A stretch of 9,017 nt of DNA from the IMG/VR virus record IMGVR_UViG_2693429549_000020, positions 1 to 9,017 of that record. One strand, 5' to 3'. A model generated the notes under the pieces. That model was not told the DNA's origin, ran no database searches, and saw only the letters and a program-made list of their open reading frames with translations. The position numbers were made by a program, and so were the translations under genes. Source of the DNA: a virus. Lineage: Duplodnaviria; Heunggongvirae; Uroviricota; Caudoviricetes. Shown here in pieces: positions 3,360 through 4,043 of the stretch (within the stretch, counting starts at the first letter, position 1; each line of letters begins with the position of its first letter).

Positions 3360-3530
3360 ATGGCTGTATTCACACGCCCTTACTTTGTCTGGCGCTTTAT
3401 GCAGTGCCACGGTAAAAACATCCGCCTTCACACCGTTACCGCCGCCAGTGAGCACGAAGCCCGTGCGCAACTGCCGCACACACACCTTATTTTTATTGCC
3501 CGTATTCGTCAGGAGGTGAGCCATGCATGA
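3360..3530 (+). CDS. Small protein, Icd-like family, copy 2
   Basis: ATG at 3360 with SD GGGAG 8 nt upstream. 56-aa product MAVFTRPYFVWRFMQCHGKNIRLHTVTAASEHEARAQLPHTHLIFIARIRQEVSHA. Stop TGA 3528-3530 overlaps the next gene start (ATGCATGA). Confidence 0.6.
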   Translation: MAVFTRPYFVWRFMQCHGKNIRLHTVTAASEHEARAQLPHTHLIFIARIRQEVSHA

Positions 3531-3750
3531 TGACCGTTATTTTAAATCAATGAGCCATGCAGAAAACGCACTGGCTAACAGTGAATGTTTGAGGCAAATA
3601 TTTCTTATCTGGCTTGATGGTTTAAGTGATGCGCCGGAAGATGAACGTGAATCTAATCTTGCTGGTGCGTTTATTTCATTACTCGATACGGTAATCGTCG
3701 AATTAAATAAAGCGATCGAAATTCACGATAAAAAAATAAACGCGGAATAA
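3523..3750 (+). CDS. Hypothetical acidic protein (75 aa)
   Basis: ATG at 3523 with a strong SD AGGAGG (3511-3516, 6-nt spacing), overlapping the stop of the preceding ORF. No recognisable motif. Confidence 0.55.
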   Translation: MHDDRYFKSMSHAENALANSECLRQIFLIWLDGLSDAPEDERESNLAGAFISLLDTVIVELNKAIEIHDKKINAE

Positions 3751-3755
3751 AAACC

Positions 3756-4043
3756 ATGAAACAGAAAAATTCTGGCTTTACTGCCAGCGGCCCCGCTCGG
3801 CCTGAAATCCGTCCCGGCGATATTTTCCGGGATAACTATGGCGGCACGGTAACGATAAAAGGCGTGGCAGAACGGCGCATCACTTACCGCCGTGATGGCT
3901 ACGAATATGATTGCGTGATGCCTGTTTATCAATTCCGGCGTGATTTCACGCTGGTGGGCCATCGTAAAGCCGTAAATCAGAAACGTGCAGCAAGTTATAT
4001 CCGCAAAATCCGTGAAATGCTGGTCGCAGGGGGTAAGAAATGA
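3756..4043 (+). CDS. Hypothetical protein (95 aa), translationally coupled to the replication gene
   Basis: ORF MKQKNSGFTASGPARPEIRPGDIFRDNYGG... with ordinary composition. Its stop overlaps the primase start (ATGA at 4040-4043). Weak SD. Confidence 0.6.
   Translation: MKQKNSGFTASGPARPEIRPGDIFRDNYGGTVTIKGVAERRITYRRDGYEYDCVMPVYQFRRDFTLVGHRKAVNQKRAASYIRKIREMLVAGGKK

Follow-up and report, generated by a model that had tools for sequence, protein, structure and literature searches.

What do two small open reading frames (ORFs), orf75 and orf95, contribute to the virus-derived DNA in which they sit directly ahead of a replicase gene? They were encountered in a stretch of 9,017 nucleotides (the window), positions 1 to 9,017 of the IMG/VR record IMGVR_UViG_2693429549_000020 (Caudoviricetes). 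A preliminary description of this DNA placed them in a translationally coupled chain of Icd-like 2, orf75, orf95 and primase, recognised no motif in either protein, considered them candidates for new functions and pointed out that small satellite proteins so placed are often directed at the helper or host. The analysis reported here finds both to be conserved core genes, in what is the ordinary arrangement for phage-inducible chromosomal islands (PICIs) of Escherichia coli. We propose, with the balance of belief close to even, that they are the last small cistrons of an RNA-gated early (replication) operon and act as replication-initiation accessory factors. Judged from its gene content, the element itself is an enterobacterial PICI-type satellite of the capsid-forming (cf-PICI) kind: searches against Pfam and PHROG, together with a count of repeats, recovered an integrase, an AlpA-type regulator, a primase-replicase gene followed by an iteron origin, a protease/capsid fusion and hence capsid genes of its own within a small element, which upholds the earlier assignment to the satellites.

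The protein encoded by orf95 (95 amino acids, 3756..4043, + strand) belongs to a family that has already been described. It matches the Pfam domain DUF4222 (PF13973) over residues 16-67, scoring 89.4 bits where the cut-off is 27 (E 1.1e-25), it also matches phrog_285/1343, and it is 58% identical to RgdR/ECs1581 over its full length (99 columns, E 1e-36), so that the earlier view of a protein without a recognisable motif has to be abandoned. On sequence grounds orf95 is a member of the RgdR/DUF4222 family and occupies the standard place of that family. The AlphaFold2 model predicts a five-stranded Tudor/KOW/SH3-like barrel at residues 23-68 (predicted local distance difference test, pLDDT, >90), a basic C-terminal helix at residues 70-92 and an N-terminal tail that is disordered yet conserved in sequence. 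A search of BFVD with orf95 returned matches only to uncharacterised and DUF1653 phage proteins. The RGD tripeptide to which the family owes its name is replaced by PGD at residues 20-22; among 12 aligned homologues, RPGD was found in eight and RGD in none, and the R20C change is neutral in ECs1581 (PMC3378721).

RgdR (ECs1581) is a 99-residue protein whose isoelectric point (pI) is 10, from Sp7 / CP-933C / O-island 51 of the enterohaemorrhagic E. coli (EHEC) O157:H7 strain Sakai. It activates LEE1, in the enterocyte effacement locus (LEE), as well as type III secretion, the effect on LEE1 being seen with or without Ler; it lowers motility and increases Congo-red binding (PMC3378721). Its DNA binding in vitro is non-specific, and an inactive variant fails to bind. 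Deletion of rgdR alters the host phenotype without induction, plasmid-borne RgdR acts in trans, and regulatory activities have been documented for both ECs1581 and C1493 (PMC3378721). RgdR was reported in all E. coli PICIs analysed (PMC6092414).

The product of orf75 (75 amino acids, 3523..3750, + strand) is acidic (pI 4.6) and is modelled by AlphaFold2 as a two-helix hairpin with helices at residues 4-32 and 38-74 (pLDDT 89.7). The statement that it lacks a recognised motif holds for Pfam and NCBIfam, where it has no match, but the protein falls into the catalogued family phrog_2196 (E 2.2e-22). A profile search collected 593 protein clusters from E. coli, Citrobacter and Salmonella, nearly all annotated as hypothetical protein; a word-index search with orf75 alone gave just eight close relatives, and a scan of genome contigs with the orf75 profile gave one locus. 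Exhaustive phmmer searching produced 15 matches, in which giant proteins of 1,400-4,600 amino acids proved to be SdrD_B repeats, matched spuriously through an acidic segment, and were discarded. When the hairpin was compared with the PDB by Foldseek, no significant fold was found, only generic alpha-hairpins (phyllogen, prefoldin, AcrA/MacA, T4 Vs.4) with a best E of 0.47. In Sakai Sp7, the positional counterpart and distant homologue of orf75 is ECs1580 (80 amino acids; 28% identity, E 5e-4). Genes of this family were seen solely in satellite-type contexts; orf75 is a member of an uncharacterised family whose genes usually stand next to RgdR genes, on the upstream side.

The way in which these genes are joined was then described at nucleotide resolution. 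Positions 3523-3530 read ATGCATGA, an overlap of 8 nucleotides that runs from the orf75 ATG (3523-3525) to the TGA stop of Icd-like 2 (3528-3530), and a Shine-Dalgarno sequence AGGAGG (3512-3517) lies 5 nucleotides ahead of the orf75 ATG. At the other end of the pair, ATGA at 4040-4043 combines the replicase ATG, at 4040, with the orf95 stop (4041-4043). A chain linked by overlapping stop and start signals had been described; this is correct for Icd-like 2/orf75 (ATGCATGA) and for orf95/replicase (ATGA), but orf75 and orf95 are separated by the 5-nucleotide spacer TAAAAACCATG and do not overlap. The coupled chain of small ORFs as such is real, as the recurrence of its junction geometry in relatives, purifying selection and confident folds all indicate. 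Local mRNA structure masking the ribosome sites of orf75 or the replicase gene was not supported (z-scores +1.4 and +1.1), and obligatory coupling therefore does not follow. The codons for the invariant C-terminal GKK of DUF4222 proteins fall on the ribosome site of the replicase gene, AGGGG(T/C)AA(A/G)AAATGA, both in the window (4020-4043) and in 94 related loci, and the conservation of these residues is probably imposed by the overlapping ribosome-site signal.

The breadth of the arrangement was assessed in those 94 loci with a DUF4222 gene, a sample that is far from independent, as it comprises 49 distinct DUF4222 sequences that collapse into 11 clusters at 90% identity and five at 80%. In 92 loci the stop codon of DUF4222 and the start of the following gene overlap by 4 nucleotides (ATGA in 90, GTGA in 2), and in the other two the overlap is 11 nucleotides; a further 17 loci with a 72-amino-acid DUF4222 show the 4-nucleotide overlap in 16 cases. 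An orf75-family gene lies directly upstream of DUF4222 in 83/94 loci, with a 5-nucleotide spacer in 77 of the 83, and is overlapped by the gene upstream of it by 8 nucleotides in 50/87 loci. Four divergent orf75 relatives were looked up: the order orf75 family-DUF4222-replicase was found in E. coli and Citrobacter, and in a Salmonella locus the orf75-family gene overlaps the replicase gene directly, DUF4222 being absent. The pair is thus a fixed core module adjoining the replicase and not novel or variable cargo, with orf95 from a family already on record.

Five architectures follow DUF4222. Four belong to satellites, namely D5_N/DUF5906 (582-619 amino acids), AAA_25 (465-471), DUF927 (709-714) and a P4 alpha-like Zn-ribbon/Toprim/D5_N type (780-833); the fifth, in SfII/e14-like lambdoid phages, is a 313-amino-acid HTH_36 O-like initiator. 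The D5_N/DUF5906, AAA_25 and DUF927 replicases are homologous over an N-terminal domain of some 125-160 amino acids, with up to 94% identity across engine types (compared between window positions 4040-4480 and loci L002, L018, L024, L047 and L084), for which residues 1-147 of the window replicase gave no Pfam or PDB match. Inside one DUF4222 cluster (>=80% identity), the helicase engine has been swapped while the replicase N-terminal domain (~140 amino acids) was kept, which indicates that the conserved unit consists of orf75, DUF4222 and this N-terminal domain. A proposed tie between the basic C-terminal helix of DUF4222 and the shared replicase domain was rejected, because helix-less forms of 71-72 amino acids precede the same replicase type (L178, L194). 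The phage form of 59 amino acids is the barrel alone.

In SfII/e14-like phages, the ORF for this short form is located out of frame in the 3' half of the ymfM coding sequence (L014 3480-3659, Shigella phage SfII; L195 1680-1859) and overlaps the start of the O-like initiator by 11 nucleotides. Annotation differs between GenBank phage records, which give ymfM, and RefSeq E. coli records, which give the DUF4222 ORF; ymfM is reportedly the cause of SOS-inducible filamentation. Regulators of the PerC/Pch family, which also activate LEE1, were observed near the same replication modules, behind the O-like initiator gene of lambdoid phages and, in satellites, behind the gene for the single-stranded DNA-binding protein (SSB) (L195 2787-3281; L006 7275-7547; L002 7773-8045). 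Together with RgdR, two unrelated LEE activators thus travel with replication genes.

Both orf75 and orf95 are under purifying selection, with dN/dS of about 0.1-0.45 in unsaturated pairs (0.12-0.39 for orf75), and this is seen across 30-60% amino-acid divergence. Their opposite charges are conserved as well, the pI being 4.4-5.2 in the orf75 family and 9.6-10.6 in satellite-type DUF4222, where the C-terminal helix accounts for the larger part of the positive charge. Their opposite charges, together with their adjacency, lead us to infer that the two proteins may pair physically. Profiles of orf75 and orf95 showed no homology to the P4 protein Cnr (ORF106, DUF5375; hhalign probability 0.2 each), and neither protein had a match in a PDB sequence search or in PADLOC. 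The remote-homology and structure checks that the preliminary description had suggested hence yielded no homologue among known replication accessory proteins, and both ORFs were found to be strongly conserved; neither result is of the kind that this description had named as refuting its view.

Upstream of the pair, the + strand carries two tandem antisense-RNA modules. The first is composed of isrK-like RNA 1 (2642..2718; RF01394, 63.2 bits against a gathering threshold of 50; a1 at 2667, b1 at 2683, intrinsic terminator at 2697-2713 with a T run), C4 antisense RNA 1 (2743..2830; RF01695, 79.2 bits against 45; b' 2786-2795, a' 2802-2808) and Icd-like 1 (62 amino acids, 2885..3073; NCBIfam NF033153, E 3.7e-17), whose ribosome site is under b2 (about 2865-2874), a2 being at 2835-2841. 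Just upstream of isrK-like RNA 1 lies a promoter-like site, TTGATC-18-TATGAT (2606..2635, + strand), a weak candidate from a consensus scan in which the number of sites was not above shuffle expectation. The second module consists of a c4-a1b1/isrK-like element (3104..3194; a1 at 3139, b1 at 3153) that scores below the gathering thresholds of both RF03163 (42.7 bits; threshold 46.7) and RF01394 (37.6; threshold 50), C4 antisense RNA 2 (3220..3308; RF01695, 74 bits against 45; b' 3264-3272, a' 3279-3285), its exactly complementary targets (3310..3350; a2 TTAGCAG at 3310-3316 and b2 AAATTGGGA at 3342-3350, the latter overlapping the Icd-like 2 Shine-Dalgarno sequence) and Icd-like 2 (56 amino acids, 3360..3530; NF033153, E 3.5e-15), the stop of which overlaps the orf75 start. 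Long upstream extensions of the two Icd-like ORFs (199 amino acids, 2474-3073; 168 amino acids, 3024-3530) cross the genes for the isrK-like and C4 RNAs and can almost certainly be dismissed as artefacts; a 206-amino-acid 'Phage_ASH' gene call in a Citrobacter locus (L008 3388-4008) likewise spans isrK and C4 RNA.

In each module, where the sites are positioned as in P1, b' and a' of the C4 RNA are exactly complementary (7-10 nucleotides) to a1/b1 upstream and to a2/b2 downstream, with b2 covering the icd Shine-Dalgarno sequence. The recognition sequences of the tandem copies differ (a = TTAGGAC and b = GTTACAGG in module 1; a = TTAGCAG and b = AAATTGG in module 2), and in 11 C4 modules of related satellites loops and targets vary together. 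Nine different b' sequences have their complement 10-14 nucleotides ahead of an icd-like ATG; L024 has a first C4 for which pairing was found with a' only. Complements also exist for the a' sequences, of which there are six, and these end 43-44 nucleotides before the icd-like ATG in 10/11 modules, L012 being a doubtful case. Such covariation of loop and target provides strong comparative support for the predicted pairing. C4 modules, sometimes in tandem, precede the orf75/DUF4222/replicase core in 7/16 sampled lineages.

Known systems provide close precedents for this layout. P1/P7 immI and isrK-orf45-anrP of Gifsy-1 share with the window the order of isrK/a1b1 element, C4 RNA and Icd-like ORF, with C4 loops complementary to the surroundings of the icd ribosome site and an icd stop that overlaps the next gene. 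The differences are that icd feeds an antirepressor gene (ant/anrP) in P1 and Gifsy-1 but orf75, RgdR and replicase genes in the window, that the window has two tandem modules of different specificity, and that orf75 has a strong ribosome site of its own. Translation of the icd-like orf45 of Gifsy-1 drives the next gene by coupling, as established by experiment (PMC4825925); the corresponding coupling in the window is a prediction from sequence. According to PMC4825925, the CI RNA of the satellite P4 silences the replication operon. P4 resembles the window in that an antisense RNA of the same type, CI RNA with seqA/seqC, gates the replication operon, whose last genes are cnr (ORF106) and the alpha primase, and a small gene lies right before the primase-helicase gene; it differs in that this gene, ORF106 (annotated DUF5375), is not homologous to orf75 or orf95 and ends 14 nucleotides from alpha, with no overlap. 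We take P4 ORF106 to be Cnr.

The Sp7 element of Sakai (cf-PICI EcCIEDL933) is the nearest characterised relative of the protein pair. Its RgdR is, like orf95, a small, basic DUF4222 protein; it follows an orf75-type gene (80 amino acids) after a 5-nucleotide spacer and runs into the replicase gene with an ATGA overlap. The two proteins differ in length (95 against 99 amino acids), in the variant of the C-terminal helix and in PGD against RGD, and the two elements in replicase type (D5_N in the window, DUF927 in Sp7) and in the C4/Icd module, which Sp7 lacks.

These observations can be assembled into an explanation in which orf75 and orf95 end an early operon that is switched by RNA. C4 RNA 2 would pair with a2 and b2 and thereby cover the Icd-like 2 ribosome site; with icd-2 translation blocked, coupled translation would be lost and the transcript would be open to Rho-dependent polarity, through which c4 of P1 also acts in untranslated icd. 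orf75, orf95 and the replicase gene would in this way be silenced together. Given the overlap of the Icd-like 2 stop with the orf75 start and the block at b2, the stop/start chain would be the route for joint shut-off by C4 RNA 2. Once expressed, orf95 would provide low-specificity DNA binding at or near the origin and the initiator, as observed for RgdR in vitro, acidic orf75 would be its partner or modulator, and RgdR would influence host transcription as a side effect of this binding to DNA or the nucleoid. An accessory role is suggested by the way in which the DUF4222 stop is almost universally fused to initiator starts in satellites and autonomous phages, by the retention of the pair together with the shared replicase N-terminal domain and by the DNA binding of RgdR. 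The regulatory part of this explanation draws on sequence, comparative covariation and published precedent, and the protein functions are what we infer from them.

Several points weigh against it. The only assayed activity of the family concerns host transcription (LEE1 up, motility down; PMC3378721), and the deletion phenotype of rgdR without induction in Sp7 implies that the gene can be expressed outside a replication burst. Checks against Cnr, PDB and PADLOC related neither protein to a replication accessory factor already known. Helicase engines are interchangeable behind one DUF4222 type, which argues against a specific helicase contact, and adjacency to the replicase gene may reflect operon linkage and recombination breakpoints rather than function. 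The pair is also not universal, since orf75 is missing from 11 loci and DUF4222 from some lineages. With regard to gating, orf75 has its own strong AGGAGG site with no predicted structure covering it, so that its translation may not need icd-2, and Sakai Sp7, in which RgdR was studied, has no C4 module.

The same experimental record is the natural starting point for another explanation, according to which modulating host transcription is the main task of the pair, or of orf95 at least. A small Tudor/KOW-like protein would bind RNA polymerase or a protein of the nucleoid and reprogramme host genes (virulence, motility, surface), the position before the replicase gene meaning co-expression only. 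This accounts directly for the family's only experimental data (LEE1, motility, Congo-red binding, non-specific DNA binding) and for the altered host phenotype of the rgdR deletion without induction, and the modelled barrel has a suggestive but generic resemblance to RNA-polymerase-binding Tudor/KOW modules. It fails to explain the linkage to five kinds of initiator in satellites and autonomous phages; the orf95 gene, placed behind two antisense-RNA gates, should be silent at rest, BFVD matched it to uncharacterised and DUF1653 proteins only, and it has PGD in place of RGD. We regard this explanation as possible but doubtful. A role as effectors directed at the helper or at defence systems (derepression, packaging interference, anti-defence), as with epsilon of P4, is closest to what had been proposed for these ORFs and appears distinctly unlikely. 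The P4 operon does have epsilon (helper derepression), orf151 and ORF106 in order ahead of alpha, the orf75 family was found only in satellite-type contexts, and the top Foldseek match of orf75, T4 Vs.4, was solved with cGAMP, although that match is non-significant (E 0.47) and orf75 has no significant fold match at all. Both genes, however, are core genes beside the replicase and outside the variable cargo, RgdR being present in all analysed E. coli PICIs (PMC6092414), and PADLOC gave no match. DUF4222 moreover precedes the O-like initiator of autonomous lambdoid phages, which have no helper, and this argues against a satellite-specific role in helper exploitation or anti-defence.

The extreme conservation of the stop/start geometry, and the fact that GKK is coded by the replicase ribosome site, would also be expected if the ORFs were translated spacers that deliver ribosomes to the replicase start and whose products are dispensable. 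Plasmid R1 offers the model in CopA-tap-repA, where a small ORF ahead of the initiator gene is the target of a blocking antisense RNA and its translation is linked to that gene; the window differs from this leader-peptide system in having three serial cistrons, two of which code for conserved, folded proteins. Purifying selection and confident folded models for both genes, the action of plasmid-expressed RgdR in trans and the retention of the barrel alone in the 59-amino-acid phage form make mere spacers highly improbable.

The remainder of the window fits the genomic setting of such an element. On the + strand, the integrase gene occupies 1-1239 and an AlpA-type regulator lies within 1562-1858. 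The replicase (582 amino acids, 4040..5788, + strand) consists of the unassigned N-terminal domain (~140 amino acids) followed by a superfamily 3 helicase of the D5_N/DUF5906/Pox_D5 type, with Pfam, NCBIfam and PHROG matches. Directly after its gene, a field of 10 exact TGTCTAC iterons in both orientations surrounds a T-rich tract (5797..6034, no strand assigned) and is the probable replication origin; 0.56 such iterons are expected, and 10 were reached in 0/200 shuffles. A phrog_1231 gene, an SSB gene and a ClpP-protease/major-capsid fusion, the last from 7101 to the window end, complete this strand. Divergent from the RNA modules, on the - strand, a small gene (2201-2392) codes for an Arc/HicB-like ribbon-helix-helix protein that may repress the early operon, and terminator-like hairpins were noted on the minus strand at 2462-2498 and 1886-1905. 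The nearest complete genomes are those of E. coli strains (94% identity across 84% of the window), in which a ~10-kb element sits between cspD/yljB and clpS (e.g. E. coli MS 200-1) and the counterpart of orf95 bears the label 'DUF4222 domain-containing protein'. Some E. coli strains retain intact orf75 and DUF4222 genes upstream of a replicase gene that has a frameshift or is split (L001 15320-17075, E. coli MS 200-1; L007 4536-6288).

A wider generalisation of the accessory-factor proposal can be put forward only tentatively: DUF4222/RgdR, usually with its acidic hairpin partner, could be a general, hitherto unrecognised replication-initiation accessory factor of enterobacterial mobile elements. 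What suggests it is that the gene abuts the start codons of no fewer than five unrelated types of initiator or helicase gene, both in satellites and in lambdoid phages. Mechanistically, low-specificity binding may remodel or de-silence AT-rich origin DNA, for instance by displacement of H-NS. Increased LEE1 expression, increased Congo-red binding and decreased motility resemble loss of H-NS function, and if the generalisation is true, origin de-silencing would also explain these effects of RgdR.

For annotation, orf95 becomes a DUF4222 protein of the RgdR family, with orf75 as its conserved partner, and neither is novel cargo. What appears to be new with respect to the published accounts consulted is modest, namely how widely DUF4222 is linked to initiators, the mosaic make-up of the replicases and the recurrence of C4 gating, all of them comparative observations that define no new kind of system. 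They nevertheless place a protein known only as an EHEC virulence regulator, by position, as a near-universal companion of initiator genes in satellites and lambdoid phages, and in many satellites the whole unit sits behind an antisense-RNA gate of the P1/P4 type. Starting from these features, the native function of RgdR can be put to concrete tests, as can the way in which satellites keep their replication silent.

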